DNA of 64,000 nt from Candidatus Dormiibacterota bacterium. GTDB lineage: Bacteria; Chloroflexota; Dormibacteria; DASZGP01. Numbering within the stretch: the first letter of the stretch is position 1; every line of letters begins with the position of its first letter. Below are positions 2 to 64,000 of the stretch, piece after piece. Location: assembly GCA_049644325.1 (NCBI GenBank), contig JBARRR010000039.1:19867-83866 (forward strand). The letters run 5' to 3'. Made by a program: the position numbers and the translations under genes. The notes under the pieces were generated by a model that saw only the letters and a list, made by a program, of their open reading frames with translations, was not told where the DNA came from and searched no databases.

Positions 2-3000
2 AACCGCGACACTAACGACCCGCAGACGGAGCAGAGCATATACGGGCACTTCAACGGTGAGTCGGGTCAGATGGTCGCCCAGGCTGACAACAACTTCGGC
101 AAGGCCGGGGTCTGCCCGCTCTGCCGCTACATCCCGATCAAGGCCGGCGACGAGGCCATCGACCGGCCCGACCGCGTCGCCGAGGCGATCGTCTACGCCG
201 CCGACAACGGGGTCAAGGTGATGGACGTGACCACCGCCGCGCTGGGCATCACGCCCCAGGTCCAGGCCGCCGTCGACTATGCCTGGCACAAGGGCATGGT
301 GATGGCCTGGGCGTCGAACGACTTCGAGTCCGCCGACCATACCGACGGCATGTTCTACCCCCACACCTGGCCTGGCAACGCCCTGACGGGGGACCACTCC
401 ACCAGGGGCGCCAACATCAACTGCACCGCACTGCCCGGCAACCCACCCAGCTGCCCTGCTTTCTACGCCACCAACACCACCTTCACGTCGCGCTCCTCGC
501 TGACCTCCTACGGGCCTCACAACCTCTTCTCGGTGCCCACCAACGACGGCTCCACGTCCTCAGGCATACCCACCCAAGCCGGGGTGGCGGCGCTGGTAGC
601 GTCCGAGGGCCTCAACGCCGTCGACGCCCACGTGCTCAGCTCCCAGCTCAACGCCGACGAGATCAAGCAGGTGGTTCGCGCCACGTCGACCTACATCGCG
701 TCGCCCAGCACCAACGCCGGGCCGCCGCTGTGCCCCACCTGCTTCCAGGGGATCACAGGGGCCACCTTCAACATCCAGTACGGGTACGGGCGCCCCAACG
801 TCTTCGCCGCCGACCAGGCGGTGGCCGGGGGCCATGTGCCGCCGACGGCTGACATCCGCTCCCCGAACTGGTACCAGGAGGTCGATCCCACCAAGCAGTC
901 GAAGCTGCACGTCACCGCCGACGTGGCGGCGCCGCGCTCGCAGACCGGTGCCTATACGTATGAGCTCCAGTATGGGCTGGGGCCGCAGCCCACCGAGTCC
1001 CAGTTCCACACGTTCGCCGGCGGCAGCGGCAGCGCGCCGGCCAACGTCGGAGCCGACCTGGACCTGTCGCAGGTCCCGTCGTCGTTCTGGTCGGGGCAGT
1101 ACAGCGTCGACCCCGTCACACGGCTCTCGATCGAGCAGTACGACGTGACGATACGGGTCCAGGTGCACGCCAAGGACGGGACCAGCACCGACCAGACGGG
1201 GGAGGACCGCCGCGCCTTCCACCTGCGCCATGACGCCACCGAGCGCCCCGGCTTCCCCGTCCAAATTGGCACGTCGGGTGAGTCGTCGCCGGCGATGGCC
1301 GACATCGAGGGCCGGGGATGGCTGGACACCATCGTCTCCACCGCCGACGGCAGCGTCCACGCCATCCGTCCCGACGGCACCGAGGCGCCGGGCTTCCCCG
1401 TCCACACCGGGCCGGCCCCGGGGATGGACCCGGCCTACGACACCAACTACCTCAACGCGCCGGGATGGAAGAGCGGGCTGCCGCGCCCGCGCGATGGCGG
1501 CCTATCACCGCTGGCGGTGGGCGACCTCCGCCATGACGGTGGCCTGGAGATCGTGGTGTCGACTTTCTCCGGCCACACGTACGTCTGGGACGGCGCCGGA
1601 CGGCTGCTGCCCGGCTTCCCGGTGCTCAACGGCAACCCCGCGTTCTACCACATGTCGGTGCCGCCCCCCGACACGCCCTACTCCTTCGAGCCGGAGAACA
1701 TCACCGGCGGCTCGCCGGTGCTGGCCGACCTCAGCGGCGACGGCAGCCTTGACATCATCCAGGTCGCCGGTGACAACCGCATCTACGCCTGGCATGTGGG
1801 CGGTGGCGGTGTCAGCCAGGTCCCGGGGTGGCCGGTCTGCGACATCTTCGACCTCGACGGCAGCGGCAAGCCGGCGCCGATCTCCGGCGCCTGCGTCGAG
1901 CCGGCCCAGCACGGCAACTTCATCCACACCCACGACTCCAAGATCGTGCCCACGCCGGCGCTGGCCGACGTCAACGGCGACGGCCACCCGGACCTGGTGG
2001 TCGGCCTGGTCGACAGCACGTGGGACAAGACATCGCCGCTGGGCAGCAACAAGATCACCGGCTACCTCGAGGCCTTCAGCTCGCGTGGCACGCTCTCCAG
2101 CAACACGGGGGAGATTCCCGGGTGGCCGGTGGCCATCCCTGGCCTGATCCAGGGCTATGGGGTGGCCCAGGACTTCGTCACCCAGGGGGTCCAGTCGCCG
2201 GTAGTCTACGAGGCCGCCGCCGGGCCCCAGGCGGTGGTCAACCCCAACCTGTTCCTGCCCAGCAAGGTCGATGTGAGGACCGCGACGGTGTCTGGCAGCC
2301 CGTTCGCCGGCGGGGCCATCGCCCCGATCGCGAGCTCCAACATCTCGGTCGGTGGACCGCTGATCCAGTTCACCACCTCACCCAGTGTTGGCAACCTGCT
2401 GGGGACGCCGACGCCCCAGGTGGCCCAGTCGGGTTCGGCCGCCGCCGGGGTGGCCACGGGCATCACCCAGACGCCGGGCCTGGGAATACGCGTCGACAAC
2501 GGCATGGCCGCCTGGGACCCGGCTACTGGCGTGGCCCTGGCCCAGTACGGCCAGTACGTCCAGGGGCTCGGGTTCTTCACCGCCCCGGCCATCGCCGACG
2601 TGACCGGTGACGGCAGGCCCGACATTATCCAGTCCGCCGACTCCGCCGCGGTGATGGGCTTCGACGGGCTGACCGGGCAGCCGGCCGCGGCCTTCCCCAA
2701 GTGGAGCGGCGGGTTCAGCCTCTTCACGCCGGCGGTGGGTGACCTGGTCGGCAGCGGCAAGGTGGCGGTGGCGGCCAGCACTCGCGAGGGGTACCTGCAC
2801 GTCTGGGACACGCCAGGGCTGACCAGCGCCAACCACGAGGCATGGCACTGGCACCAGGACGATCGCAACACCGGTCACTACGGCACCGATACCAGGCCGC
2901 CGGCCGGCATCCGGGACCTGCTGGCCACGCAGGCGGCCTCGGGCGACACGCTCCATTTCACCGCGCCCGGCGATGACTGGAACTACGGCACGGCCGCCGC

Positions 3001-39609: not shown

Positions 39610-39692
39610 GTCGGCGTGGTGGAACGGTAGACACGCCAGCTTTAGGAGCTGGTCCCCGCGAGGGGGTGGAGGTTCGAGTCCTCTCGCCGACA
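39610..39692 (+). tRNA. tRNA-Leu (anticodon UAG), class II with a long variable arm.
   Basis: The acceptor stem is 7 bp, GTCGGCG/CGCCGAC. The anticodon stem is CCAGC/GCTGG with loop TTTAGGA. The variable arm is a hairpin, TCCCCGCGAGGGGGT. The T-loop is TTCGAGT with stem GGAGG/CCTCT. The discriminator is A and CCA is not encoded. Confidence 0.85.
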
Positions 39693-49893: not shown

Positions 49894-50850
49894 GTGACCT
49901 ACGGCACGATCAAGTGCCCCAACTGCGGGGCGCCCATCCCGGTCAACAGCGAGGCGTGTCAGTACTGCGGCGAGGCCCTGCCCAAGGCCGCGCCCCCACC
50001 GCCGCAGGCGACGCCTTCGGTCATGCTCAACTTCAACCAGGAGGCCTTCGACCAGGTGGCGGTCGCAAGCGCTCGCAGCTTCCTGTGGGCCTTCATCGCC
50101 ATCCCCATCGTGCTGGTGGTGATCGGGATCATCGTCGCCGTTACGGTGTTCTCGAGCCTGGGACGCAGCACCTCCAGCGGCCTGTCTCTCGGCACCTCCA
50201 GCAACGTCTCCCAGCTGCAGTCCAAGAAGTGCGAGAACTGCAGCCTGCCCAACACCACCGCCAACAACACCGACCTCTCCGGGGGCAAGTTCAGGGGCAT
50301 CAGCCTGGTCAACGGCAGCTTCCGGGGCAGCAACTTCAAGAACGCAGACCTGTCCCGGGCCGACCTCAGCAACGCCAAGATGTCCAATGCCGACCTGTCG
50401 GGGGCCGACCTCACCGGGGCGAAGCTCAGCAACGTAGACCTCAGCGGCGCCAACCTCTCTGGCGCCAAGCTGGACTCGGTCACCGCCGCCAACACCGACT
50501 TCAGCCAGGCCAACCTGAAGGAGGTGAGCATCACGGGGACGCCGGCGCTGGTCAACGCCGTCCTCAACGGGGCCGACCTGACCGGCGCCACGCTGCAGAA
50601 CGCGGACCTGACCAATGGCAAGCTCGACCACGCCAAGCTCCGCAGCGCCAGCCTGACCGACGTCAAGCTGATCAACGGCATTCTCACCGGGGCCGACCTC
50701 ACCAGCGCCAAGCTGACCCGCATCAATTTCATCAACGCCAACCTGACCGGGGCCACGACCGCCGGGGTGACGTCCACCGGGACCAGCACGTGGACCAACG
50801 CCCACTGCGTCGACGGCGGCGTGGTGCCGTTCGGCGGCAAGTGCTTCTGA
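49894..50850 (+). CDS. Pentapeptide-repeat protein with an N-terminal C4 zinc ribbon and one TM.
   Basis: The zinc ribbon is CPNCG...CQYCG and the TM is LWAFIAIPIVLVVIGIIVAV. About 30 A(D/N)LSG-type pentapeptide units follow. Confidence 0.8.
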   Translation: MTYGTIKCPNCGAPIPVNSEACQYCGEALPKAAPPPPQATPSVMLNFNQEAFDQVAVASARSFLWAFIAIPIVLVVIGIIVAVTVFSSLGRSTSSGLSLGTSSNVSQLQSKKCENCSLPNTTANNTDLSGGKFRGISLVNGSFRGSNFKNADLSRADLSNAKMSNADLSGADLTGAKLSNVDLSGANLSGAKLDSVTAANTDFSQANLKEVSITGTPALVNAVLNGADLTGATLQNADLTNGKLDHAKLRSASLTDVKLINGILTGADLTSAKLTRINFINANLTGATTAGVTSTGTSTWTNAHCVDGGVVPFGGKCF

Positions 50851-50887
50851 ACTCGGTTTAGGCGCACTCCTGGCGGGTTAAGATCTG

Positions 50888-51273
50888 GTGTTGCGTGACG
50901 AGTCGGCAAGGTGACCGCGGCGGGAGCGATCCCGTCGAGGAAAGTCCGAGCTCCGTAGAGCAGAGTGCCGGGTAACACCCGGCGGGCGTGAGCCCAGGGA
51001 AAGTGCCACAGAAAATACACAGCCTCGGCGTAAGCCGGGGTGAAGGTGAAATGGTGGAGGTAAGAGCCCACCGGCGACCGGGAGACCGGCCGGCCTGGTA
51101 AACCCCACTCGGAGCAAGACCTAAAGGAGGACGCCAAGGCTGCTCGCCAAGTCCTCGGGTTGGTCGCTGGAGGCGCCGGGTAACCGGCGCCGTAGATAGA
51201 TGGTCACCACCCCAAGGCCTTTACCGCCTAGGGGTACAGAACTCGGCTTACCGCCGGTCTCGCCACGCAACAC
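50888..51273 (+). ncRNA. rnpB: RNase P RNA, bacterial type A.
   Basis: Conserved blocks are present: GGAAAGTCCGAGCTCC, CACAGAAAATACA, GGTGAAATGGTGGAGGTAAGAGCCCACC, GGTAAACCCCACTCGGAGCAAGACC and ACAGAACTCGGCTTA. The P1 helix pairs 5-prime GTGTTGCGTGACGAG with 3-prime CTCGCCACGCAACAC. Confidence 0.9.
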
Positions 51274-51442: not shown

Positions 51443-51506
51443 TTGACAGGGTGCGTTCCCAGTGCTACGTTTCGCGGCGAAGTGGTAGCAGGTGGTGAAA
51501 AGTGGG
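51443..51506 (+). promoter_or_regulatory. dcw-cluster promoter (TTGACA-17-TACGTT) followed by three GTGGN direct repeats at 10-bp spacing; these are MraZ boxes.
   Basis: TTGACA is at 51443-48 and TACGTT at 51466-71. The repeats GTGGT, GTGGT and GTGGG lie at 51482, 51492 and 51502. A second TTGACA is at 51578. Confidence 0.6.
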
Positions 51507-51620
51507 GAACGATCAGTCTTCTCTTCGTCCCCCCTCGATTGGATTCCCACTTTTCGCCCCTGCGTCCCTTCGGCACATTGACAGGGGGGCCAGCGGTCCC
51601 ATCAGACGCCCGATGAGCCG

Positions 51621-52067
51621 ATGTTCGTCGGCCAATATCGACACTCGATCGACGCCAAGGGACGGCTGGCCATCCCGGCCAAGCACCGGGAGCAGCTGCC
51701 CACGGGGTCGATCATGACCATCGCCCCAGAGAACTGCCTCCGGGTGTACCCACCACAGGAGTGGGAGCGGGTCAGCGGGGAGATGCGGCTGGGCGCCGCC
51801 AGCGACCCGATGGAGACCAACCTGGCGCGGCGGATGTTCAGCCAGGCGCACGAGATCGAGTTCGACAAGCAGGGTCGGGTCCTGATCCCGGCCTGGCTCC
51901 GGGAGGCGGCGGGCCTGGGCGCCAGTGCCCAGGTAATCGGCGTCGCCAACGTCGTCGAGATCTGGAGCGACGCGAACTGGACGGCCTTCGTCGAGCAGAC
52001 CGGCGACTTCACCGGGCTGGCCAACGCCGTTGCCGAAAAGCGGCAGGGCAGCCCCGGAAATCCCTAG
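51621..52067 (+). CDS. mraZ: Transcriptional regulator MraZ.
   Basis: It starts MFVGQYRHSIDAKGRLAIPAKHR and has a duplicated SpoVT/AbrB fold. Confidence 0.9.
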   Translation: MFVGQYRHSIDAKGRLAIPAKHREQLPTGSIMTIAPENCLRVYPPQEWERVSGEMRLGAASDPMETNLARRMFSQAHEIEFDKQGRVLIPAWLREAAGLGASAQVIGVANVVEIWSDANWTAFVEQTGDFTGLANAVAEKRQGSPGNP

Positions 52068-53100
52068 ACCGACCGGGCCAGGGGGCTCGACGCGCCACCA
52101 ACCTGTTCTTTTACACGAATCAATAGAGATCCTCCAGCCCCGGCCGGGCGCCGTCTTCTTCGACGGCACCTTTGGCGGGGGAGGGCACTCCCGGGAGATC
52201 CTCAAGCGGATCAGCCCGGGGGGAATCCTCCTGGCCATGGACCGCGACCCCGAGGCCGCAGCCCGGGCCGAGCAGCTGAAGGCGGAGCACGGTGACGCGT
52301 TCCGCTTTGTCCAAGGGAACTTTGCGGATGCCAGCGACCCACTCGAGGCGCTGGGTACGGGGCAGGCGCCGCTCGACGGCGCCTTCCTCGACCTCGGGCT
52401 CTCATCGTTCCAGCTGGACGACCCCGAACGGGGCTTCAGCTTCATGGCCGACGGCCCCCTGGACATGCGCATGGACCCCGACCAGGGCCCCAGCGCCGCC
52501 GAGGTCGTCAACCGCTACCGCGAGGCGCGGCTGAAGGCCGTGATCCGGGAGCTCGGCGACGAGCCCTGGGCCGGCCCCATCGCCGCCGCGATCGTCCGCC
52601 GCCGCCGGCGCCAGCCCTTCCAAACCACGCGGGACCTCGCCGAGCTCATCGGCGGCGTCATCCCCCGGGCCCGGTGGCCAAGGCGCATCGACCCCGCAAC
52701 CAAGACCTTCCAGGCGATCCGCATGGAGGTCAACGACGAGCTTGGTTCACTGCGCGGGGGGCTGGAGGTAATCGTCAAGCACCTGAAACCAGGTGGCCGG
52801 CTTGGGGTCGTCTCATTCCACTCTCTCGAGGACAAGGTAGTAAAGGACTTTCTCAACGTCGAAGCAAAGGACTGCATCTGTCCGCCCCAACAGCCGGTTT
52901 GCACGTGCAACCACCTGGCGAGTCTCATCATCCATCCCCCCCATCCCCTAAGGCCGGGCGAGAGCGAGATCGAGGGTAATCCTCGGTCTCGTTCTGCCCG
53001 GCTGAGGGGCGCCATCCGGCTTCCCTACAGCGGGGCCATGCCGGCAACCAGGAAAGGTCGTAGCAGAAAACGAAGAAATGATCGCTCTCAGACTGAATAA
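52030..53100 (+). CDS. rsmH: 16S rRNA (cytosine1402-N4)-methyltransferase RsmH.
   Basis: It has HQPVLLHESIEIL and FDGTFGGGGHSREIL. The only canonical start upstream of the conserved N-terminus is the TTG at 52030, which overlaps mraZ by 38 nt. Confidence 0.8.
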   Translation: MPKSGRAAPEIPRPTGPGGSTRHQPVLLHESIEILQPRPGAVFFDGTFGGGGHSREILKRISPGGILLAMDRDPEAAARAEQLKAEHGDAFRFVQGNFADASDPLEALGTGQAPLDGAFLDLGLSSFQLDDPERGFSFMADGPLDMRMDPDQGPSAAEVVNRYREARLKAVIRELGDEPWAGPIAAAIVRRRRRQPFQTTRDLAELIGGVIPRARWPRRIDPATKTFQAIRMEVNDELGSLRGGLEVIVKHLKPGGRLGVVSFHSLEDKVVKDFLNVEAKDCICPPQQPVCTCNHLASLIIHPPHPLRPGESEIEGNPRSRSARLRGAIRLPYSGAMPATRKGRSRKRRNDRSQTE

Positions 53101-53563
53101 CGCTCCCGCCCGCCGGGCGCTGAGCCCTGACTCCAGGGTTAAGCGCTCGCGTGGCCTGGTGCGTATGCGCCGCCCGCGGTCCGCGGCCAGCTTGACTGCG
53201 GTCCTGCTCGGGATCCTGCTGCTTGGCGCCTTCGGCCTGCTCTACGTTGCCGCCACCGCGTCGGCCACCCAGGCCAGCTACCAGATCAACATGCTCAAGG
53301 GTGACCAGCAGAAGCTGATCGCCCAGCAGCAGTCGACCCGCTACCAGATCTCGATGGCGACCTCCGCCGGCCGCCTCGACGGCGACGCCTCGAGGATGGG
53401 AATGGTCCCCCAGAACCAGATCCAGTACCTGCCCGGCAGCCACAACCCGGTGGCGCTGGCGGGACCGCAGCAGGCCACCCCGACCGAGCCCAAGGGCTCC
53501 TTGCTGCAGCAGCTGGCCACCATCCTGGGGCGGCCCACCGAGGCACAGGCGAAGGGGCAGTGA
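53078..53563 (+). CDS. ftsL: FtsL-like cell-division protein.
   Basis: It has a single TM (LTAVLLGILLLGAFGLLYVAA) followed by a coiled coil (QINMLKGDQQKLIAQQQ). It is in the conserved position. Confidence 0.6.
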   Translation: MIALRLNNAPARRALSPDSRVKRSRGLVRMRRPRSAASLTAVLLGILLLGAFGLLYVAATASATQASYQINMLKGDQQKLIAQQQSTRYQISMATSAGRLDGDASRMGMVPQNQIQYLPGSHNPVALAGPQQATPTEPKGSLLQQLATILGRPTEAQAKGQ

Positions 53564-53640
53564 TGAGCTGGTACCGGCCCCACCCGCCCCCGATGCGCAG
53601 CTGATGCGCCGGGGATGGGGTAAATGGGAGTCGTAACCAG

Positions 53641-55455
53641 TTGAGCGAATCGTCGCGCGGGCGCCTGCGCGTCCTCTGGTTGATGGCCGGGGCCGCCCTG
53701 CTGGCCGCGATCCTGGTTTTCCGCCTGCTCTACTGGCAGGTTGCGGAGCACCAGCGCATCTCGGCATTGGCCGCCGACCAGCACCAGGTCACGTTCAAGC
53801 TGCCGGCCCACCGTGGCCGCATCCTCGACCGCAACGGCCAGCTGCTGGCGACCGACACCCCCGTCTTCAACGTCGTCGCCGCCCCCAACCTGATCCCCCC
53901 CGACCAGCGCCCCGCCATCGCCGGGCGGCTCTCGGTGCCCCTGGGGATGGAGCCACAGGAGGTCCTCAAGCAGATCTCCCAGCCGCTCAAATTCACCTAC
54001 ATCAAGCGCAAGGTGCCCAAGGCCGTCGGTGACCGCATCGATGCGATGCACCTCACCGGCATCGCCCTGGAGGCGGACTCCCAGCGTTCCTACCTGACCA
54101 GCGTCGACGCCCCGCCGACCACCCCCGGGCCGGTAGTGCTGCAGCCCTCGCCACTGCCGCTGGCGTCGCCTTCGCCGAGTCCTTCGCCAGGGGCGCCCGC
54201 GCCGCCGCCGATCCTGCCCCACTCGCTGGCCAGCAACCTGCTTGGCTTCGTCAACAATGACGGCGCCGGCCAGTACGGGCTGGAGCAGTACTACAACAAG
54301 CAGCTGAGCGGCACCGACGGCTTCGAGGCCAGCCTCAAGACCGGCGCCAACCAGACCATCACGCTCAGCGACGAACAGCGCAAGGATCCCCAGAACGGCC
54401 TCGACCTGCAGCTGGGCATCGACAGCCAGGTCCAGTTCTTCGCCGAGAAGGCCCTAGCGGATGGGGTGCGTAAGACCGGCGCCGAGTCGGGCTCGGTGAT
54501 CGTGATGGAGCCATCTACCGGCAACATCGTCGCCTGGGCCGACTATCCCAGCTTCGACGCCAACAACTTCGGCGGCACCGACGCCAAGCTCTTCACCGAC
54601 CCGATGGTCAGCGGCCTCTACGAGCCCGGCTCGGTGATGAAGCTGGTGACCATGTCCGGAGCCCTCGACAGCGGCTCGGTGACCCCGACCACCACCTTCA
54701 ACGAGACCGGCTCCGTCAACGTCGGCGGCTTCAGCATCCGCAACTGGGACGGCAAGGCCCACGGCAACATCACCATGACCCGCGTCATCGAGCAATCACT
54801 CAACGTGGGTGCCGTCAAAGCCCAACAGATGCAGGGCACCGACAACTTCCTCAACTACCTCACCCGCTTTGGCATCGGCAAGGGCACCGGTGTCGACCTC
54901 TCCGGCGAGGTCAACCAGCAGCTGCCGGCCAAGGCCGACTGGCACGCCTCCGAGCTGGCCACCGCCAGCTTCGGGCAGGGCGTGGTGGTGACGCCGATCG
55001 AGATGGTCGACGCCGTCAACACCATCGCCAGTGGCGGCCGCCTGGTGAAGCCGCGGGTGGTCACCGCCACGATCGACGGCAGCGGCCGGCGCACCGACCT
55101 CGCCCCCGACCCGGGCACCCAGGCCGTCAGCCCGCAGACCGCCGGCCAGATGCGCGACATGATGACCAGCGTGGTCGAGCACGGCTCAGGCTGGACCGCG
55201 AAGATGCCAGGTTGGACGGGGCGGGTGGCGGGCAAGACCGGCACGGCCAACATCCCCGAGAACGGCAAGTACACCGACAAAGTGGTGGCCAGCTTCGTCG
55301 GCTTCATGCCCGCGGAGAACCCGCGCTTCACGATGATCGTGATCATGCGCAAGCCCCAGGGCGGCGGGTTCCAGCAGGAGGGCACCTTCGCCGCGGCCCC
55401 GGTCTGGAAGACGATCGCCCAGCAGATCCTCGCGCAATGGCACATCACGCCGTAG
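53641..55455 (+). CDS. ftsI: Class B penicillin-binding protein (FtsI/PBP2-like transpeptidase).
   Basis: It has an N-terminal TM, SVMK (SxxK), SLN and KTG motifs. Confidence 0.85.
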   Translation: MSESSRGRLRVLWLMAGAALLAAILVFRLLYWQVAEHQRISALAADQHQVTFKLPAHRGRILDRNGQLLATDTPVFNVVAAPNLIPPDQRPAIAGRLSVPLGMEPQEVLKQISQPLKFTYIKRKVPKAVGDRIDAMHLTGIALEADSQRSYLTSVDAPPTTPGPVVLQPSPLPLASPSPSPSPGAPAPPPILPHSLASNLLGFVNNDGAGQYGLEQYYNKQLSGTDGFEASLKTGANQTITLSDEQRKDPQNGLDLQLGIDSQVQFFAEKALADGVRKTGAESGSVIVMEPSTGNIVAWADYPSFDANNFGGTDAKLFTDPMVSGLYEPGSVMKLVTMSGALDSGSVTPTTTFNETGSVNVGGFSIRNWDGKAHGNITMTRVIEQSLNVGAVKAQQMQGTDNFLNYLTRFGIGKGTGVDLSGEVNQQLPAKADWHASELATASFGQGVVVTPIEMVDAVNTIASGGRLVKPRVVTATIDGSGRRTDLAPDPGTQAVSPQTAGQMRDMMTSVVEHGSGWTAKMPGWTGRVAGKTGTANIPENGKYTDKVVASFVGFMPAENPRFTMIVIMRKPQGGGFQQEGTFAAAPVWKTIAQQILAQWHITP

Positions 55456-55466
55456 GCTTGCGGGCG

Positions 55467-56864
55467 ATGAGCTTTCGCCTCAGTGACCTCGTGGAGGCCA
55501 CCGGTGGGCGGCTGGTCGGCGGTGACCCCGCGATCACGCTGGAGCGCCTGGTCACCGACTCGCGACAGGCAGGCCCAGGCGCCCTCTTCGTGGCCCTCGC
55601 CGGCGAGACCACCGACGGCCACCGCTTCATCCCCGCCGCCGCCGGATCCGGTGCCTCCGCCCTGCTGGCCCAGTCGCTGCCCGAGGGCACCAGCACGCCG
55701 GCGGTGCTGGTGCCTGACACCAAGCAGGCCCTGGTCGACTTCACCCGGCACCAGCTGGCCCGGCAGCCGATCAAGGTGGTGGCGGTCACCGGCAGCGCCG
55801 GCAAGACCACCACCAAGGAGATGATCGCGGCGGTTCTCTCCCGCGCGTATGAGGTGCTGAAGACCGAGGGCAACCTCAATACCTACACAGGCGTGCCGAT
55901 GAGCATTGCCCTCCTGGAGCCGCGCCACCAGGTTTTCGTGGCCGAGTACGCCATGTCCGCCCCGGGCGAGATCGTTTTCCTTTCGCACATGGCGCCGCCG
56001 GACATCGCGGTCGTCCTCAACGTCGGGTTGGCCCACGCCGGCATGCCCGGGCTGGGCAGCATTGACGCCGTCGCCGCAGCCAAGCGCGAGCTGGTCGAGG
56101 CCCTGACCGACGACGGCACCGCGGTGCTCAACGCCGACGACCCCCGGGTTCGCGCGATGGCATCCGCGACCGGCGGCGAGATCGTCTTCTTCGGCGCCGG
56201 AGCGGCGCGAGACGACAGTCCTGCCGCGCCGCAGGTTCGGGCCCAGAGCATCAGCCTCCGCGGGCTAGACGGCAGCGACTTCGAGCTGGTGCTGCCCAGT
56301 GGCCGGGCGCCGGTGCGCCTGCAGGTCCCGGGCGAGCACGCCATCAATAACGCCCTCGCCGCCGCGGCCACGGGCTTCGCCATGGATGTGCCGGTCACCG
56401 ACATCGCGGCCGCCCTGGGCGCCTTCGCGCCGTTGGCGGGGCGCATGGTCCTGCGTCCCGGACGGAAGGGCTCGACCGTCATCGACGACACATACAACGC
56501 CAGCCCTGCCGCGGTTGAGGCCGCGCTGGCGGTGCTGCTGGCCGAGCGGGGGAGGCCGCGGCTGGCGGTGCTGGGCGACATGCTGGAGCTGGGAGACACG
56601 GCCGTCGAGGCGCATCGCCGCATCGGCGCCGCCGCCGCGGGCGCCGACCTCCTGGTCGTGGTTGGCGAGATGGCGGGCGAGATCCGAGCCGGCGCAATCG
56701 GGGCGGGGATGCCGGCGGACCACGTCGCCGAGGCCGCCGTTGATGACGTCGCTGCGCTGGTCGAGCCCCGGCTCGATGACGCGCTGGTGCTGGTCAAGGC
56801 CTCCCGCGGGGTCGCCCTGGAGAAGGTGGTCGCGGCGCTGGTCGAGCCCGAGGCCGGCCGATGA
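55467..56864 (+). CDS. murF: UDP-N-acetylmuramoyl-tripeptide--D-alanyl-D-alanine ligase.
   Basis: It has TDSRQAGPGALFVAL, VTGSAGKTTTKEM, DDTYNASP and KASRG, matching E. coli MurF blocks. Confidence 0.85.
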   Translation: MSFRLSDLVEATGGRLVGGDPAITLERLVTDSRQAGPGALFVALAGETTDGHRFIPAAAGSGASALLAQSLPEGTSTPAVLVPDTKQALVDFTRHQLARQPIKVVAVTGSAGKTTTKEMIAAVLSRAYEVLKTEGNLNTYTGVPMSIALLEPRHQVFVAEYAMSAPGEIVFLSHMAPPDIAVVLNVGLAHAGMPGLGSIDAVAAAKRELVEALTDDGTAVLNADDPRVRAMASATGGEIVFFGAGAARDDSPAAPQVRAQSISLRGLDGSDFELVLPSGRAPVRLQVPGEHAINNALAAAATGFAMDVPVTDIAAALGAFAPLAGRMVLRPGRKGSTVIDDTYNASPAAVEAALAVLLAERGRPRLAVLGDMLELGDTAVEAHRRIGAAAAGADLLVVVGEMAGEIRAGAIGAGMPADHVAEAAVDDVAALVEPRLDDALVLVKASRGVALEKVVAALVEPEAGR

Positions 56865-57871
56865 AGCTGGACTTTCTGGCCCACGGTCGCGACCGGGCGG
56901 TTGACTTCTTCACCCATTTCTCGCCCTGGCCGCCGGCCGCAGCGCTGCTGCTGCCGTTGGTGGTGGGCCTGCTGCTGATGCCGCTGGGCATCGGGCTCCT
57001 GGCACGCCTGGGCTTGGGCCAGCGGGTCCGGGTTGGCGGCCCCGATGAGCACCACACCAAGGAGGGGACACCCACCGCCGGGGGCCTGATCATCGTCGCC
57101 CTGGTCCTGCTCGCGGTGCTCTTCGTCGACCGTCGGCGGGAGGTCGTGCCGGTGCTGGTGGCCATGATCCTGGGCGGCGGACTGGGCCTGGTCGACGACA
57201 TCGCTACCGTCCGTGGCGCCACCCGCGGGCTCCTCGCCCGGCAGCGGATCGTGCTCCAGGGCCTCATCAGCCTGGCCCTGGCCATCTGGTTCTTCTCGAT
57301 GGGCATGGACAGCCAGGTGGTGCCCCTGGTGGGGACATGGCACATGGGCTGGCTGATCGTGCCGGTGGCCGCGGTGGCCCTGGTGTCGGCGGCCAATGCC
57401 TTCAACCTCACCGACGGCAGCGACGGGCTGGCTGCCGGCGTGATGGTGCTGGTGGCGCTGGTGCTGGCCCTGATCGTGCGCAACCGCCACGACATTGCCC
57501 AGGTGCGGCTCCTGCTCGCCACTGCCGGGGCGCTGCTCGCCTTCCTGGTCTACAACCTGCCGCCGGCGCGCGTCTTCATGGGCGGGGTGGGCTCCGAGGG
57601 TATCGGCATGCTGCTGGCAGCCGCCAGCATCGCCGGCGGCCTGGTCTGGTTCCTGCCGCTGCTGGCGCTGGTGCCGGCGATCGAGACGCTGTCGGTGATC
57701 GTTCAAGTGGTCAGCTTCAAGACCCGGGGCAAGCGCGTGTTCAAGATGGCGCCGCTGCACCACCACTTCCAGGTCAGCGGCTGGGGGGAGTGGACGGTGG
57801 CGCTGGCAGGCTGGGCCGCGACCAGTGCGGTGGGGACCCTGGGCCTGCTGCTGGCAAAGCGGGCGGTCTGA
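56861..57871 (+). CDS. mraY: Phospho-N-acetylmuramoyl-pentapeptide transferase.
   Basis: It has NAFNLTDGSDGLAAG and ten TMs. There is an ATGA overlap with murF. Confidence 0.9.
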   Translation: MKLDFLAHGRDRAVDFFTHFSPWPPAAALLLPLVVGLLLMPLGIGLLARLGLGQRVRVGGPDEHHTKEGTPTAGGLIIVALVLLAVLFVDRRREVVPVLVAMILGGGLGLVDDIATVRGATRGLLARQRIVLQGLISLALAIWFFSMGMDSQVVPLVGTWHMGWLIVPVAAVALVSAANAFNLTDGSDGLAAGVMVLVALVLALIVRNRHDIAQVRLLLATAGALLAFLVYNLPPARVFMGGVGSEGIGMLLAAASIAGGLVWFLPLLALVPAIETLSVIVQVVSFKTRGKRVFKMAPLHHHFQVSGWGEWTVALAGWAATSAVGTLGLLLAKRAV

Positions 57872-59061
57872 TGCGTTCCAACGCGACCTCGGTGGACAAG
57901 TGGCTGCTGGCCACGGTGGCGGCGCTGTGTGCCTTCGGCCTGGTGATGGTCTTCAGCAGCTCCGAGGTTTCCGGGTACCTGGAGTACGGCAACGCCAGCT
58001 ACTACTTCCAGCGCCAGATCCTCTGGCTGGTGCTGGGAGCGGTCCTGGGCCTGCTGGCCCTGGGTTTCGACTACCACCGCCTGCGCGGCCTGGCGCCAAT
58101 CGGGGCGGTTGTAGTGGTGGCGCTCCTGGTCCTGGTCCTGGTCCCGCACATCGGCGTCGTCCGCAACGGCGCTCGTCGCTGGTTCGGGGTGGGCTCGTTC
58201 ACCTTCCAGCCGGCGGAGGCGGCCAAGATCGTGGCCATCGTCTACCTCGCTCGCTGGCTGGAGAAGTCGACCGAGCGCGTCCGCTCCTTCCGCAAAGGCC
58301 TGGTCCCGTTCCTGGTGATGCTCAGCCTGCTGCTGGGCCTGGTGCTGCTGGAGAAGGACCTGGGCACGTCTGCGATCCTGGCCGTGATCGCGGTCTCGAT
58401 GTTCCTGGTGGCGGGGGCGCGCTGGACCCACCTGGCCGGGGTGCTGGCGGTGGCGATCGGGGCGATGGCGGTCCTGATCAAGCTCGAGCCTTACCGCTAC
58501 AGCCGGATGCTCTCCTACCTCAACCCGTGGTCGGACGCCCTCAACACCGGCTTCCAGGGCGTGCAGTCGGTCCTCGCCCTGGGCTCGGGCGGCCTGTTTG
58601 GCGTCGGCCTGGGCAACAGCATCCAGAAGTACCAGTGGCTGCCCGAGGCTCACACCGACTTCATCTTCGCTATCATCGGCGAGGAACTGGGGCTGGTCGG
58701 CACCGTTCTGGTTCTGCTCCTGTTCTGCGTCCTTGCCTACCGGGGTTACCGAGCCGCCCTGCGGGCGCCAGACACCTTCGGGCTCCTGCTCGCAACGGGA
58801 ATAACGACCTGGCTTATCTTCCAGGCCTTCGTCAACATGGCGGCGGTCACACTCACCCTCCCGACCACCGGGATCCCGCTGCCCTTCATCTCCTTCGGCG
58901 GGTCCTCGCTCTCCGTTTCGCTGGCGGCGGTGGGCCTGCTGCTCAACATCTCCGCGCAGGGCGTCAAGCCCGCGGTTGGTCGACGTGCGGGTATTGATAT
59001 CGGGCGGCGGCACCGGGGGGCACATCTACCCCGCACTGGCCGTAGCGCAAGCCCTATCTGA
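57871..59061 (+). CDS. ftsW: SEDS-family peptidoglycan glycosyltransferase FtsW.
   Basis: It starts MRSNATSVDKWLL and has a SEDS core. The ATG overlaps the mraY stop by 1 nt. The C-terminal tail runs into murG. Confidence 0.85.
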   Translation: MRSNATSVDKWLLATVAALCAFGLVMVFSSSEVSGYLEYGNASYYFQRQILWLVLGAVLGLLALGFDYHRLRGLAPIGAVVVVALLVLVLVPHIGVVRNGARRWFGVGSFTFQPAEAAKIVAIVYLARWLEKSTERVRSFRKGLVPFLVMLSLLLGLVLLEKDLGTSAILAVIAVSMFLVAGARWTHLAGVLAVAIGAMAVLIKLEPYRYSRMLSYLNPWSDALNTGFQGVQSVLALGSGGLFGVGLGNSIQKYQWLPEAHTDFIFAIIGEELGLVGTVLVLLLFCVLAYRGYRAALRAPDTFGLLLATGITTWLIFQAFVNMAAVTLTLPTTGIPLPFISFGGSSLSVSLAAVGLLLNISAQGVKPAVGRRAGIDIGRRHRGAHLPRTGRSASPI

Positions 59062-60064
59062 GATCGACCCCGGCGGCGAGGTCCTCTACGTCGGCCGCAA
59101 GGGTGGTATCGAGGAGGAGATCGCGTCTGGCTGGCCGGTGACCATGGAAGGGCTGGCCATCCGTGGTGTCGAGGAAGAGGCCTGGCGGAACCTGCCCCTG
59201 GCCTACGCGCTGCCGGCGGCGGTGGTGCGGACCCGGGGCCTGATCCGGCGCTTCAAGCCGGACGCCGTGCTGGGCACCGGCGGCTACGTCACTGCGCCGG
59301 TGGGGATCGCCGCGGCCAGCAGCCGGGTACCGTTCTTTCTCCAGGAGCAGAACGCCGAGCCGGGCCGGACCACGAAGCTGCTCGCCCGGCGGGCGCGCAT
59401 GGTGGCGTCGGCCTACGACGAAACCGCCGGTCACCTGCCGGGCACCACCGTCGTGCGCACCGGCACCCCGGTCCGTCCCGAGTTCAGGCCGCCGGCGCGT
59501 GACATCTCCGCGCTTCGCCACCTCGTCGTCTTCGGGGGGAGCCAGGGGGCGCACCGCATCAACCTGGCCCTCGTCGAGAGCCTCAAGCCGGTCCTCGAGG
59601 AGCACGCCGACATGACCGTCGACCACGTCTGCGGGGCTCGCGACCACGATTGGCTCCACAGCTTCCGATCCGGGCTACCCGCCGACCTCGCCGACCGCTA
59701 CGTCCTCCAGCCCTTCGTTGAGCGCATCGACCGGCTGTTGGGCTCCGCCGACCTGGTGCTGGCGCGGGCCGGCGGCAGTGGCATCGCCGAGATGACGGCC
59801 ATGGGTCTGCCCATGATCCTGGTGCCTTTCCCGTTCGCCGGCGAGCACCAGCGGCACAACGCCGAGCCGCTGGTGGCCACCGGGGCGGCCGTCATGGTCC
59901 GTGACCGGGAGCTGAGTGGGGCCCAGGTGACGTCGATCATCAAGAGCTTCCGCAAGCCCGATGGCGGCGAGCGGCTGAGCCGGATGGCCGCCGCCAGTCG
60001 TGCCTTCGGCCGGCCCGACGCCGCCCGCGACGTTGCCCGCCTCCTCCTGGAGCGCGCTGCATGA
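58976..60064 (+). CDS. murG: UDP-GlcNAc:undecaprenyl-PP-MurNAc-pentapeptide GlcNAc transferase.
   Basis: It has VLISGGGTGGHIYPALAVA. The start is ambiguous among TTG 58976, GTG 58985 and TTG 58994. Confidence 0.85.
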   Translation: MVDVRVLISGGGTGGHIYPALAVAQALSEIDPGGEVLYVGRKGGIEEEIASGWPVTMEGLAIRGVEEEAWRNLPLAYALPAAVVRTRGLIRRFKPDAVLGTGGYVTAPVGIAAASSRVPFFLQEQNAEPGRTTKLLARRARMVASAYDETAGHLPGTTVVRTGTPVRPEFRPPARDISALRHLVVFGGSQGAHRINLALVESLKPVLEEHADMTVDHVCGARDHDWLHSFRSGLPADLADRYVLQPFVERIDRLLGSADLVLARAGGSGIAEMTAMGLPMILVPFPFAGEHQRHNAEPLVATGAAVMVRDRELSGAQVTSIIKSFRKPDGGERLSRMAAASRAFGRPDAARDVARLLLERAA

Positions 60065-61398
60065 ACGTGCACCTGGTGGGCATCGGCGGTTCGGGCATGA
60101 GCGCGCTGGCGCACCTCTACCTCGAGGCGGGTGACAGCGTCAGCGGGTCGGACGCGCAGTCGTCGACCGTCACCGACGCACTCGCCGCCGCCGGCGCGCG
60201 CGTCGCCATCGGACACGACAGTGGCAACCTCGAGGGCGCTGAGACGGTGATCGTCTCCACTGCGATTCCCGACGACAACCCCGAGCTGGTGGAGGCCCGG
60301 CGTCGGGGCCTGCGCGTGGTCAGCCGGGGGCAGGCCGCCTCGGAAGTCGCCCGCGGTCGTCGCCAGGTCGCGGTCGCCGGCACCCATGGCAAGACCACGA
60401 CCACGACGATGGTGGCGACGGCGCTGGGCGCGCTCGACCCGCTGGTCCTCAGCGGCGGCCGGCTGCCGGGCAGCCAGTACAACTCGCGCTACGGCCGCGG
60501 CAAGGTGGCGGTGATCGAGGCGGACGAGAGCGACGGCTCCTTTCTCGAGCTCACGCCCGAGCTGGCGGTGGTCACCGGCGTCGAGGCTGACCACCTCGAC
60601 CACTACCCCGACATCGCCGCCATCCGCCGCGCCTTCGAGCTCTTCGCCAGCCGCGTCACCGGCGCGCTGGTGGCCTGCGTCGACGATGCCGGCGCCGCGG
60701 CGCTGGTGGCCGCCGCGCCTGGCGACGTGATCACGTACGGGTTCGGTCCGGCGGCCCAGGTGCGCGCCGAGCAGTACGAGGCGGTCGACGGCGGCTCCAG
60801 CTTCGACGTGTCCTCGCCCTGGGGCTACGAGAAGGTCCGGCTGCCGGTCCCGGGCAGGCACAACGCCAGCAATGCGCTGGCGGCGCTGGCGGTGGCGGTG
60901 AAAATGGGGCGATCGATGGCGGAGGCGGTGAAGGCGCTGGGCAGCCTGGAGCTGCCGGGCCGCCGGCTGGAGCTGGTGGCAGAGGTCGACGGCGCCCGCG
61001 TCTACGATGACTACGGCCACCACCCCACCGAGGTGGTGGTGACCCTGGCGGCGGCGCGGGAGCTGACCCCCGGCCGCCTGGTCTGCGCCTTCCAGCCCCA
61101 CCGCTACTCGCGCCTCAGCGCCATGCTCGAGGAATTCGCCGGCTCCTTCGGCGGCGCCGACGAGCTGGTCCTGGTGCCGGTCTACAGCGCCGGCGAGGCG
61201 CCCATCGACGGCGCTACCTCCGAGGCGCTGGCAGCCGCCGTCGCCCGCAAACTCCCGGACCTGCCCGTCACCGTGCTGCCGTCGCTTGACGACCTGCCGG
61301 CCGACCTCCGGCGGCGGCTCAAGCGCGGCGACGTTGCCGTCTGCATGGGCGCCGGCGACATCTACCGCGCCAGCCGGCGACTCAGGGACGCGGCTTGA
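60061..61398 (+). CDS. murC: UDP-N-acetylmuramate--L-alanine ligase.
   Basis: It has HLVGIGGSGMSALA and GTHGKTTTT. There is an ATGA overlap with the upstream gene. Confidence 0.9.
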   Translation: MNVHLVGIGGSGMSALAHLYLEAGDSVSGSDAQSSTVTDALAAAGARVAIGHDSGNLEGAETVIVSTAIPDDNPELVEARRRGLRVVSRGQAASEVARGRRQVAVAGTHGKTTTTTMVATALGALDPLVLSGGRLPGSQYNSRYGRGKVAVIEADESDGSFLELTPELAVVTGVEADHLDHYPDIAAIRRAFELFASRVTGALVACVDDAGAAALVAAAPGDVITYGFGPAAQVRAEQYEAVDGGSSFDVSSPWGYEKVRLPVPGRHNASNALAALAVAVKMGRSMAEAVKALGSLELPGRRLELVAEVDGARVYDDYGHHPTEVVVTLAAARELTPGRLVCAFQPHRYSRLSAMLEEFAGSFGGADELVLVPVYSAGEAPIDGATSEALAAAVARKLPDLPVTVLPSLDDLPADLRRRLKRGDVAVCMGAGDIYRASRRLRDAA

Positions 61399-62342
61399 GC
61401 TCGCCGCTCTCGAGCACGATCGAATGGCTCCAGCGGGGCGCCAACCCGAACCATTCGCTGGCGCCGCATACGACCTATCGCATCGGTGGCGCCGCCGACT
61501 GGTACCTGGAGGTGGGCTCGGGGTGGTCGAGGTTGATCCGGGAGACCCGGGAGCGCGGTATCCCAGTCACCCTGCTGGGCAACGGCAGCAACGTCCTGGT
61601 CGCCGACGAGGGCGTGGAGGGACTGGTGGTCCACCCCACCGACGCCTCCATTGAGGTCCGCGGGGAGACCGTTTACGCCGGCGCCGGGGCTCGGATGGTG
61701 AAGGTTGCCCAGGCCGCCGCCGCCGCCGGGCTCACGGGCATGGAATGGGCGCTGGGCATCCCCGGCATGGTCGGTGGATCGGTCCGCAACAACGCCGGTT
61801 GCTTCGGTTCCGACATCGTCTCCACCGTGGTTGCAATCCACGGCCACGACCCGGCTGGTGAGGAACGCACCTGGACCACCGAAGAGCTGGCCTTCGTATA
61901 TCGCGGCTCGGCACTTCGCGACGGCGACCTCGCCGGGGCGGTCGTCACCGCGGCGGAGTTCGGCCTGGCGCCGGCCGACCCTGCCGGCATCAAGAGTCGA
62001 ATGGACGAAATCCAGCGCCAGCGCCGGCTGACGCAGCCGGTCAGCAAACGCAGCACCGGCAGCGTCTTCAAGAACCCTCCGGGCGACGCCGCCGCACGGC
62101 TGATCGACGCCGCCGGGCTCAAGGGCCGGACCGTCGGCGGCGCCATGGTCAGCCCCGAGCACGCCAACTTCATCGTCAACGCCGCCAACGCGCGGGCGGC
62201 CGACGTGGCCGAGCTGGTGCGGATCGTCCAGGCGACGATCGAGGACCAGAGCGGTATCCACCTAGAGCCTGAGATCGAGGCGCTGGGACGATGGCCCGGG
62301 GGTATCCCCGACGCCTTCGCGGGCCCTGCGGAGAAGACGTGA
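61395..62342 (+). CDS. murB: UDP-N-acetylenolpyruvoylglucosamine reductase.
   Basis: It has HTTYRIGGAADWYLEV and LLGNGSNVLV. The TTG start overlaps the murC stop. Confidence 0.85.
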   Translation: MSSPLSSTIEWLQRGANPNHSLAPHTTYRIGGAADWYLEVGSGWSRLIRETRERGIPVTLLGNGSNVLVADEGVEGLVVHPTDASIEVRGETVYAGAGARMVKVAQAAAAAGLTGMEWALGIPGMVGGSVRNNAGCFGSDIVSTVVAIHGHDPAGEERTWTTEELAFVYRGSALRDGDLAGAVVTAAEFGLAPADPAGIKSRMDEIQRQRRLTQPVSKRSTGSVFKNPPGDAAARLIDAAGLKGRTVGGAMVSPEHANFIVNAANARAADVAELVRIVQATIEDQSGIHLEPEIEALGRWPGGIPDAFAGPAEKT

Positions 62343-63268
62343 AGGTCGTGGTCCTGGCCGGCGGCGTGTCCGGCGAGCGCGAGGTCTCGCTGCGCTCCGG
62401 CGGGCAGGTGCTGAATGCACTGCGCAGCCTCGGCCATGAGGCCGAGATGGTGGACTTCGGCCCCGAGTGCGGCGAGGCGCTGCGCCGCATCGACCCAGAC
62501 CTCGTTTTCCCGACGCTCCATGGGCCGCTCGGAGAGGACGGCACCGCGGCCGCTGTCCTGGAGCTGCTTGACCTGCCCTACGTCGGCTCGGGCGTACTGG
62601 CAGGGGCGCTGGCGATGAACAAGGCGGCCGCCAAACGGGTGATGATCGCGGAGGGGCTGCCGACACCGGAGTTCGAGCTGGTCGAGAGCGTCGCCGATCC
62701 CCGGGTCCAGGCGGGCCACCTGGCTGCCCACCTCGGCCTGCCCCTGGCGATCAAGCCCAACTCGGGTGGTTCCAGCCTCGGCTTCAGCATCGCCCGGGAC
62801 GAGGACGCCGTCCTCGATGGTGTGGCCCTCGCCCTGGACAGCTCCGGGCCCGACGGCGCCGCCCTGGTGGAGAGCTTCAAACCGGGGATGGAGGTGACCA
62901 TTGGCGTCCTCGGCGTCCACGACCCCCAGGCCCTGCCCACCCTCGAGATCCTCGCCACCAGCGGCACATACGACTACGAAGCCAAGTACACCGCCGGCAT
63001 GAGCCAGCACGTCATCCCCGCCCGGATCCCGCCGGCCCAGGCAGAGGAGGCGCAGCGGCTGGCGCTGCGGGCTCACCACCTCGTCGGCGCTCGGGGTTTG
63101 AGCCGGGTCGACGTCATCTGTCCGCCCACCGGCGAGGTCTGGATCCTGGAGGTCAACACCATGCCGGGGATGACCGAGCTCAGCCTCTTCCCCGACGCCG
63201 CTCGCGCCGCGGGGCTGGAGTTCCCGGAGCTGATCGCCAGGCTGGTCGAGGAGGCACTGCCGGCGTGA
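62339..63268 (+). CDS. ddl: D-alanine--D-alanine ligase.
   Basis: It has VKVVVLAGGVSGEREVSLRSG and an ATP-grasp domain. The GTG overlaps the murB stop as GTGA. Confidence 0.85.
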   Translation: MKVVVLAGGVSGEREVSLRSGGQVLNALRSLGHEAEMVDFGPECGEALRRIDPDLVFPTLHGPLGEDGTAAAVLELLDLPYVGSGVLAGALAMNKAAAKRVMIAEGLPTPEFELVESVADPRVQAGHLAAHLGLPLAIKPNSGGSSLGFSIARDEDAVLDGVALALDSSGPDGAALVESFKPGMEVTIGVLGVHDPQALPTLEILATSGTYDYEAKYTAGMSQHVIPARIPPAQAEEAQRLALRAHHLVGARGLSRVDVICPPTGEVWILEVNTMPGMTELSLFPDAARAAGLEFPELIARLVEEALPA

Positions 63269-64000
63269 GCACGGGCGGAGGCCGGCGCCGCAGCCCAGCC
63301 GGCAGGAGAAGCGCGGGCGGCAGCCGTGACCTGGCGCCGCCCAGTGAGCACCGCCGGGGCCGTGGCGCCACGCGACGGTCGCGGTCCAGCGGGGCGGGCG
63401 CCGCAGGCCTCAGCCTGCCCACGATCACGCTCTCGCCAAGGCCGGTGCTGCGAGCCGCGATCCTGCTGCTGGAATTGGTCGGCCTCTTCGTCCTGGTCAA
63501 CCAGCCGGTCTTCGCCTCGACCCGGGTGGACGTCAGTGGCGCCAAGCACCTGAGCCGCCAGCACATCCTCGACCGGGCCGGCCTGAGCCCGGGGACGTCA
63601 ATCTTCCTGGTCTCGACCAGCGCGGCGCAGTCGGACCTGGCCGGCGACCCGTATGTCCGCTCGGCGACGGTCCGCACCCAGCTGCCCAACCAGGTGCGGA
63701 TTGAGGTGACGGAGTGGGAACCGCTGGCCCTGGTCACCCGCGGCAACGCCCGTTACCTCCTCAACGAGCAGGGCAACGTCCTCACCGCCACCACCGACGC
63801 CGGTCTCGGCCGCAACCCCGGCCAGCCCCGGGTGCCCATCACCGAGGAGGACACCGCCGCCCTGGCGCCGGGTCAGAGCGCGATCAACAGCCGGCTGGTG
63901 GTGGACCTCGACCAGATGCAGTCGACCTTCCCCTCGGCCTATGGCCTGACCGTCGCCAGGTTCCTGATCCAGTCCGGCGGGCAGCTGGTTGTGGAGACCA
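63265..64000 (+). CDS. ftsQ: Cell-division protein FtsQ/DivIB, partial at the 3-prime end (it runs off the window).
   Basis: A hand-translated frame from the GTG at 63265 gives an Arg-rich cytoplasmic N-terminus, the TM AAILLLELVGLFVLV and a POTRA region TRVDVSGAKHLSRQHILDRAGLSPGTSIFLV. It is not in the ORF track because no stop is reached. Confidence 0.7.
   Translation, partial: MSTGGGRRRSPAGRRSAGGSRDLAPPSEHRRGRGATRRSRSSGAGAAGLSLPTITLSPRPVLRAAILLLELVGLFVLVNQPVFASTRVDVSGAKHLSRQHILDRAGLSPGTSIFLVSTSAAQSDLAGDPYVRSATVRTQLPNQVRIEVTEWEPLALVTRGNARYLLNEQGNVLTATTDAGLGRNPGQPRVPITEEDTAALAPGQSAINSRLVVDLDQMQSTFPSAYGLTVARFLIQSGGQLVVET

Follow-up and report, generated by a model that had tools for sequence, protein, structure and literature searches.

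The stretch analysed here, which we call the window, comprises 64,000 nucleotides (nt; about 70% G+C) of contig JBARRR010000039.1 from a Candidatus (Ca.) Dormiibacterota bacterium (assembly GCA_049644325.1, positions 19,867 to 83,866 of the forward strand), and it ends in a gene cluster for cell division and the cell wall (the dcw cluster). Open reading frames (ORFs) and profile models give the order mraZ-rsmH-ftsL-ftsI-murF-mraY-ftsW-murG-murC-murB-ddl-ftsQ over positions 51621-64000 of the plus strand (Table 1), which is the order that a first-pass annotation of this DNA had described. The twelve genes lie on one strand and are collinear with the canonical dcw order except for two missing ligases: of the four stem-peptide ligases (murC, murD, murE and murF), the cluster holds only murF and murC. 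A phmmer comparison of MurF and MurC with all six-frame segments recovered only those two genes, so that murE and murD are absent both from their canonical slots and from the entire 64 kb. Likewise, Pfam scans of 40 upstream ORFs found no Mur ligase, but ordinary housekeeping genes with nothing peptidoglycan-related among them. We consider it very probable that this layout is the normal, inherited form of the dcw operon in one clade of Ca. Dormibacterota, and that it results from two separate ancient relocations or losses.

Table 1. Features of the dcw cluster and of the region upstream of it (positions in the window; scores in bits).
Feature	Position	Strand	Basis or description
rnpB (RNase P RNA, class A)	50899-51266	+	Rfam RF00010, 272 bits vs gathering score 100
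Candidate sigma-70-type promoter	51443-51471	+	TTGACA 51443-51448, 17-nt spacer, extended -10 TGcTACGTT 51463-51471 (hexamer 51466-51471)
Candidate MraZ operator	51481-51508	+	Three direct repeats, AGTGGT / GGTGGT / AGTGGG
mraZ	51621-52067	+	TIGR00242, 115.8 bits vs cut-off 98
rsmH (mraW)	52030-53100	+	TIGR00006, 318 bits vs cut-off 154; TTG start
ftsL-like small membrane protein	53078-53563	+	Located after rsmH and before ftsI
ftsI (class B penicillin-binding protein)	53641-55455	+	
ftsI-murF junction (canonical murE slot)	55453-55469	+	ftsI stop TAG, 11-nt spacer, murF ATG
murF (UDP-MurNAc-tripeptide--D-Ala-D-Ala ligase)	55467-56864	+	TIGR01143, 371.9 bits vs cut-off 288.6
mraY	56861-57871	+	TIGR00445, 217.5 bits vs cut-off 192
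mraY-ftsW junction (canonical murD slot)	57869-57873	+	TGATG, 1-nt overlap
ftsW (SEDS family)	57871-59061	+	TIGR02614, 395 bits vs cut-off 337.5; Pfam FTSW_RODA_SPOVE
murG	58976-60064	+	TIGR01133, 248.3 bits, slightly below cut-off 250.25
murC	60061-61398	+	TIGR01082, 430 bits vs cut-off 335
murB	61395-62342	+	NF010480, 310 bits vs cut-off 259
ddl (D-Ala--D-Ala ligase)	62339-63268	+	Pfam Dala_Dala_lig_N and Dala_Dala_lig_C
ftsQ, 5' part (the window ends within the gene)	63265-64000	+	Pfam POTRA_1, 61.5 bits

The profile scores identify the ligase that follows ftsI as a true MurF without ambiguity, and an activity on UDP-MurNAc-tripeptide and D-Ala-D-Ala is predicted for it. On the models of the other ligases it remains below each cut-off (MurE, TIGR01085, 108 versus 257 bits; MurD, TIGR01087, 67 versus 212; MurC, TIGR01082, 68.5 versus 335), it has the three-domain architecture Mur_ligase, Mur_ligase_M and Mur_ligase_C of Pfam, and its nearest homologues (94%, 87%, 78%, 75% identity and lower) are annotated as MurF proteins from Ca. 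Dormibacteraeota or Dormibacteria. Looking up the exact MurF and MurC sequences of the window in an assembly collection gave no match. The first-pass annotation had made the same call from the motifs DDTYNAS and KASRG, and the 372 bits on the MurF model against 108 on the MurE model agree with it. Judged by the same kind of models, the stem-peptide pathway is otherwise complete and canonical. We also considered whether MurC could be an Mpl-type tripeptide ligase and rejected this, since it scores 157 bits on the Mpl model (cut-off 389) and 430 on the MurC model.

Some of the remaining gene calls need comment. The TIGR00006 alignment of rsmH begins at residue 21, with no alternative start codon between there and the TTG. 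The ftsL-like product has a weak match to FtsL_Actino (45.8 bits, below the cut-off of 55) and none in Pfam. For ftsI, the top NCBIfam matches are the SpoVD, PBP2 and FtsI models, all below their own cut-offs, and its relatives carry PBP_dimer and Transpeptidase domains. The MurG motif GGGTGGH occupies residues 10-16. For ddl, the start is likely to be the GTG at 62339 rather than the ATG at 62291 of the longest ORF, and the 4-nt overlap that this start produces at the murB/ddl junction is also found in relatives.

Apart from the ftsL-ftsI interval (77 nt), which is the sole real gap in the cluster, the sequence bears out the tight coupling reported at first pass. The stop and start codons overlap as ATGA at murF/mraY and at murG/murC, as TTGA at murC/murB, and as GTGA at murB/ddl and ddl/ftsQ, while longer out-of-frame overlaps occur at mraZ/rsmH (38 nt), rsmH/ftsL (23 nt) and ftsW/murG (86 nt). 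The overlapping stop and start codons suggest that translation of these genes may be coupled. The overlap of the ftsW 3' end with the murG 5' end (58976-59061, about 86 nt) is conserved in both frames in four related loci (L081, L082, L084 and L090); here, the FtsW tail RRAGIDIGRRHRGAH is encoded over the MurG segment LISGGGTGGHI. The gene calls of the public contigs shorten murG by about 38 residues and thereby lose GGGTGGH, because gene callers avoid the overlap with ftsW.

These four loci have the same gene order as the window, from mraZ to ftsQ. They lie on contigs of different samples, with MurF proteins that are 75% (L081, on a 2,747,021-bp contig), 61% (L082, 737 kb), 57% (L084, 221 kb) and 53% (L090, 149 kb) identical to that of the window, and a neighbour-joining tree of MurF places L090 at the base of the clade. 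The L081 contig approaches the median genome size of the group, 2.87 Mb (PMC10608941). Beyond the point where the window ends, L081, L082 and L084 continue from ftsQ to a DUF1290 gene, ftsA and ftsZ; in L090, one reverse-strand gene (PF18306/PF03641) stands between the DUF1290 gene and ftsA, and the locus ends within ftsA. Since the same order is found in different samples, a local mis-assembly or a strain-specific deletion is excluded, and the argument of the first-pass annotation against an assembly gap is upheld by four independent contigs.

The alternative that the double absence is an artefact, either because a mis-assembly or collapse deleted the genes or because the gene called murF is really murE, is therefore of practically negligible probability. 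The near-identical P-loop sequence of the Mur ligases can mislead assemblers, and a 2.3-kb contig (L139) may be such a case: after ftsI it carries a truncated ligase (3-521, minus strand) in which the P-loop connects a MurE-type N-terminal domain with a MurD-type segment (GITGTNGKTTTTAL...GGNIGETVLDRL). Either the gene is recombinant, or the assembly formed a chimera through the near-identical sequence. However, the four contigs, with MurF proteins 53-75% identical to that of the window, already refute an artefact at this locus, the clean overlapping stop and start codons at the junctions argue against it as well, and a mis-called murE is opposed by the MurF and MurE model scores given above.

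The two absences differ in age. In a sister clade, represented by L083 (MurF 53% identical to that of the window), the order is ftsI-murF-mraY-murD-ftsW, i.e., murD is kept and murE is absent. Soil metagenomes are very rich in this clade, and relatives of its MurD carry the name Ca. Dormibacteraeota. To look beyond it, metagenomes were scanned with the MurD motif GGNIG[EQ]T.LDR, back-translated to DNA and chosen to leave out the abundant sister clade. The scan gave 69 contigs of 65-77% G+C, 67 of which carry MurD; mraY-murD was found in 55 and murD-ftsW in 47, and wherever the flank was present, murD on these 67 contigs always stood beside mraY and/or ftsW. In 20 of the 69, ftsI is followed by a MurF-type ligase (the one that was checked scores 374 bits on TIGR01143), and in four it leads straight to mraY. 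MurE was found on none of the 69 contigs and, overall, on none of about 75 Dormibacterota-like contigs, for which the surroundings of the cluster (about 20 kb each) were covered.

The direct ftsI-murF junction is thus shared by L081, L082, L084 and L090, by the sister clade, by L086 (where the FtsI C-terminus is directly followed by murF), by the 20 soil contigs and by L009, a metagenome-assembled genome (MAG) of the Anaerolineae in which 42 nt separate ftsI from a bona fide murF, with murE absent and murD kept. As this junction occurs widely across this region of the tree, the absence of murE is old. The absence of murD is younger and limited to the clade of the window, in which the mraY-ftsW junction is derived and present from the deepest sampled branch. 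Comparing the dcw organisation of related taxa, as had been proposed at first pass, hence gave four clade contigs of the same order and a sister clade that keeps murD, and it does not support the idea that both ligases were excised in one event, since the absences differ in phylogenetic depth (L083 and the 67 contigs keep murD). The other possibility raised there, that the two genes never resided at this place, is unlikely, given that across phyla the canonical order is the dominant one (36 of 80 loci, see below) and that published reconstructions infer a complete ancestral cluster (PMC8871954).

Further differences were seen among these relatives. Four loci from related high-G+C soil lineages (L133, L137, L144 and L159) have the order ftsI-mraY-murD-ftsW, without murE and murF, and the ligase content of the cluster forms a mosaic across this high-G+C soil radiation. 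Between the window (60061-63268) and L083 (15919-19335), identity is only 33% for MurC and 40% for each of MurB and Ddl, compared with 50-59% for FtsI, MurF and FtsW, and the sister-clade MurC is barely above the MurC cut-off (339.5 versus 335.1 bits; Mpl model, 280). This divergence suggests that the MurC-MurB-Ddl part of the cluster may have been replaced, or may have evolved fast, in one of the two clades.

We then placed the layout among 80 dcw loci, which are the listed matches of a scan of a genome collection with MurF and thus an arbitrary cross-phylum sample from distant phyla (33-43% identity). The canonical ftsI-murE-murF-mraY-murD-ftsW order was found in 36 of them, from many phyla. 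Seventeen keep murE and pass directly from mraY to ftsW (mostly MAGs of Clostridia and other Bacillota, with Limnochordia and one Atribacteria; mraY-ftsW gaps of -96 to +59 nt), and a single one, L009, lacks murE and keeps murD. None of the 80 surveyed loci is without both. Other departures were murF-ddl pairs outside the cluster (including that of Ktedonosporobacter, L068) and murE-murF-ftsW without mraY. A content of all four ligases therefore marks the canonical form of the dcw cluster and not a dcw cluster as such: among the accepted dcw clusters, many are without some of the mur genes, both in the literature (PMC8871954) and in this survey.

Compared with the canonical cluster of Escherichia coli (mraZ-rsmH-ftsL-ftsI-murE-murF-mraY-murD-ftsW-murG-murC-ddlB-ftsQ-ftsA-ftsZ), the window shares the boundary genes, the single strand, the order and the tight packing. 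In both, mraZ comes first, with direct repeats resembling MraZ boxes upstream, and the far end in relatives of the window is ftsQ-ftsA-ftsZ. The window differs in lacking murE and murD and in having murB between murC and ddl, the E. coli cluster being without murB (PMC8871954); its relatives, moreover, carry the DUF1290 gene between ftsQ and ftsA. With the Clostridia/Bacillota type (murE-murF-mraY-ftsW/spoVE-murG), the window has in common that mraY is followed by the SEDS gene without murD, and that SpoVE and SpoVD are the models best matched by its FtsW and FtsI. However, that type keeps murE before murF and belongs to an unrelated phylum, and the loss of murD is thus convergent. The sister clade, the related soil lineages and L009 have ftsI-murF without murE in an overall order like that of the window, but they retain murD between mraY and ftsW.

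Starting from a complete ancestor, dcw clusters have mainly evolved by the loss or delocalisation of genes, and the ancestor of the Chloroflexi has been reconstructed with several dcw sub-clusters (PMC8871954), while the full order is kept in rod-shaped Gram-negatives and rearranged in other groups (PMC10214165). As in these fragmented clusters of Chloroflexi and of bacteria that are not rods (PMC8871954, PMC10214165), individual mur genes have left the cluster of the window and synteny is kept in what remains, but here the cluster is one compact block from which only two genes are removed. In summary, each component of the layout is a familiar variation, and it is the combination of the double absence with an otherwise intact and tightly coupled block that was not seen elsewhere.

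Upstream of mraZ, the window holds a class A RNase P RNA gene, a candidate promoter and candidate MraZ-binding repeats (Table 1). The rnpB gene, about 350 nt from mraZ, is upstream of mraZ in the other Dormibacterota loci too (L081 5412-5775; L082 5582-5934; L083 5284-5664; L084 5588-5938; L090 3012-3386); it is a conserved neighbour in both clades and belongs to the context of the operon, not to its members. In L090, Abi_alpha and DUF445 genes are inserted between rnpB and mraZ. A minus-strand ORF that overlaps rnpB in the window (49959-51137) is probably spurious. Six aligned Dormibacterota upstream regions, from both clades, agree fully in the -35 hexamer and in most positions of the -10; a generic promoter scan missed this candidate because its -10 matches only three of the six consensus positions.

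The repeats next to it place GTGG at 51482, 51492 and 51502, with an exact period of 10 nt, and their columns are invariant in all six aligned sequences. Direct repeats that contain GTG, at a spacing of about 10 bp and upstream of mraZ, are what defines a MraZ box, and all three features are present here. In E. coli, the operator reportedly consists of GTGGG-type repeats at 10-bp spacing (as described by Eraso et al. in 2014). The repeats of the window also resemble the direct repeats AAAGTG[T/G] given as MraZ boxes of Mollicutes in the part of PMC8475190 that summarises Fisunov 2016 and Eraso 2014. Hence, the region upstream of mraZ looks like a putative sigma-70-type promoter followed by a putative MraZ operator.

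In the pathway, the steps of MurD and MurE fall between those of MurC and MurF, and MurF needs the UDP-MurNAc-tripeptide that MurD and MurE make; a peptidoglycan-making bacterium without the two enzymes is not known. Because canonical MurC, MurF, Ddl, MurB, MraY and MurG are present and the pathway is universal, we infer that MurD and MurE are supplied from elsewhere. Several points weigh against the account of two relocations or losses. What places murE and murD elsewhere in the genome is the logic of the pathway, and the source of the clade structure is a neighbour-joining tree of a single protein, MurF. Among the best 120 matches listed for the sister-clade MurD, all belonged to the sister clade, and cluster look-ups for 30 MurD or MurE candidates gave other phyla or nothing. 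In the motif scan of the metagenomes, in which the motif was guessed, the position of murD on the 69 contigs was canonical throughout and no MurD came from the window's clade; searching with a MurE-MurD fusion likewise gave neither MurD nor MurE on a contig of that clade. Since these searches covered the best 120-150 matches or relied on a guessed motif, their failure is uninformative rather than negative.

Twenty G+C-rich representatives other than the four nearest proved to be Planctomycetota, Clostridia, Thermaerobacter, Nitrospinota, Chloroflexota or unnamed, with no Dormibacterota among them. The nearest MurD representatives (P0241, P0243, P0244 and P0253) were considered as a relocated murD and rejected: in each, murD adjoins mraY and/or ftsW, and all stand in the canonical mraY-murD-ftsW context. 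A literature search on the cell-wall genes of Dormibacterota found nothing specific.

One alternative is that murE and murD moved together, either to a second locus or into a single fused gene. A solution of this kind exists in nature, as a family of MurE-MurD fusion proteins is real (P0286 and P0400-P0404, 901-988 aa): in P0286, TIGR01085 matches residues 18-484 with 540 bits and TIGR01087 residues 499-934 with 516 bits, each half exceeding its curated cut-off, and the gene stands alone, far from dcw genes (L088 7968-10793, L089 6147-8972). The possibility of a fusion elsewhere, mentioned in the first-pass annotation, thus holds insofar as such proteins exist, but none lies on the known contigs of the window's clade (2,747,021, 737,444, 499,318, 221,627 and 149,269 bp). 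Moreover, the family has only six sequence clusters, compared with about 54 MurF clusters for the clade, L088, at 64% G+C, shows no synteny with the window, and the different ages of the murE and murD absences argue against a joint move. P0286 was consequently rejected as the source of the missing ligases of the clade, its family being tiny and not found on the clade contigs, and we regard a joint move in general as very unlikely. In their list of chimeras, Shirakawa et al. 2023 (PMC10214165) do not include the MurE-MurD type.

Alternatively, the clade could truly be without canonical MurD and/or MurE, with D-Glu and the diamino acid added to UDP-MurNAc-L-Ala by a non-orthologous or fused enzyme, or with the stem peptide made by means of a MurC or MurF of broadened specificity or by salvage. 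The lack of MurE on the approximately 75 Dormibacterota-like contigs, and of a MurD for the clade in the searches made, would fit this explanation, which, if true, would mean an unrecognised variant of an otherwise universal Mur pathway. Against it, MurC, MurF, Ddl, MurB, MraY and MurG are present and all score as canonical enzymes, and MurC is not Mpl-like. In addition, the contigs covered about 20 kb around the cluster and the genome is about 2.8 Mb (median of the group 2.87 Mb; PMC10608941), and therefore absence from that interval says nothing about the rest of the genome. We judge a true lack of either enzyme to be exceedingly improbable.

Other fusions of cell-wall enzymes were encountered in the same data. 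P0344 (761 aa) is a fusion of glutamate racemase (MurI) with MurD, and P0447 (1169 aa) combines PBP_dimer, Transpeptidase and MurE domains as an FtsI-MurE fusion. In a Desulfobacterales MAG (L007, 8351-11395), a stop-to-stop frame of 1015 aa is a probable MurE-MurF fusion by its length and its MurF score only. In the window itself, the 51 kb upstream of the cluster encode proteins of ordinary metabolism, transport and repair, among them an MMPL transporter accompanied by a TetR regulator, an SbcCD-like pair, an acyl-CoA carboxyltransferase and a malic enzyme, and the sole tRNA gene is a tRNA-Leu (anticodon TAG) at 39610-39692 of the plus strand.

Taken together, the layout of the window is best explained by two ancient and separate relocations or losses within an inherited operon. 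In a first step, murE would have left the slot between ftsI and murF in an ancestor shared at least with other Dormibacterota lineages, a similar state being found in Anaerolineae. Later, at the base of the window's clade, murD would have been lost cleanly from its place between mraY and ftsW, and the junction would have been re-sealed as the overlapping mraY stop and ftsW start. The cluster would be transcribed from the conserved promoter with the repeats upstream of mraZ, repressed by MraZ and translated in a coupled manner, and MurD and MurE would be expressed from other loci, outside the operon and outside the control of MraZ.

The conservation of dcw gene order has been explained by the co-translational assembly of Mur complexes and by balanced expression, termed "genomic channeling" (PMC10214165). 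A compact and coupled operon from which the two middle ligases are missing is a mild natural counter-example to arguments from gene order for the assembly of a Mur complex: MurC and MurF remain linked to MraY and MurG, and the enzymes that act between MurC and MurF are not linked. Since comparable departures are known in Firmicutes, Chloroflexi and cocci, the finding is a data point and not a new principle. For the group itself, the mraY-ftsW junction provides a clean synapomorphy of one Dormibacterota clade.

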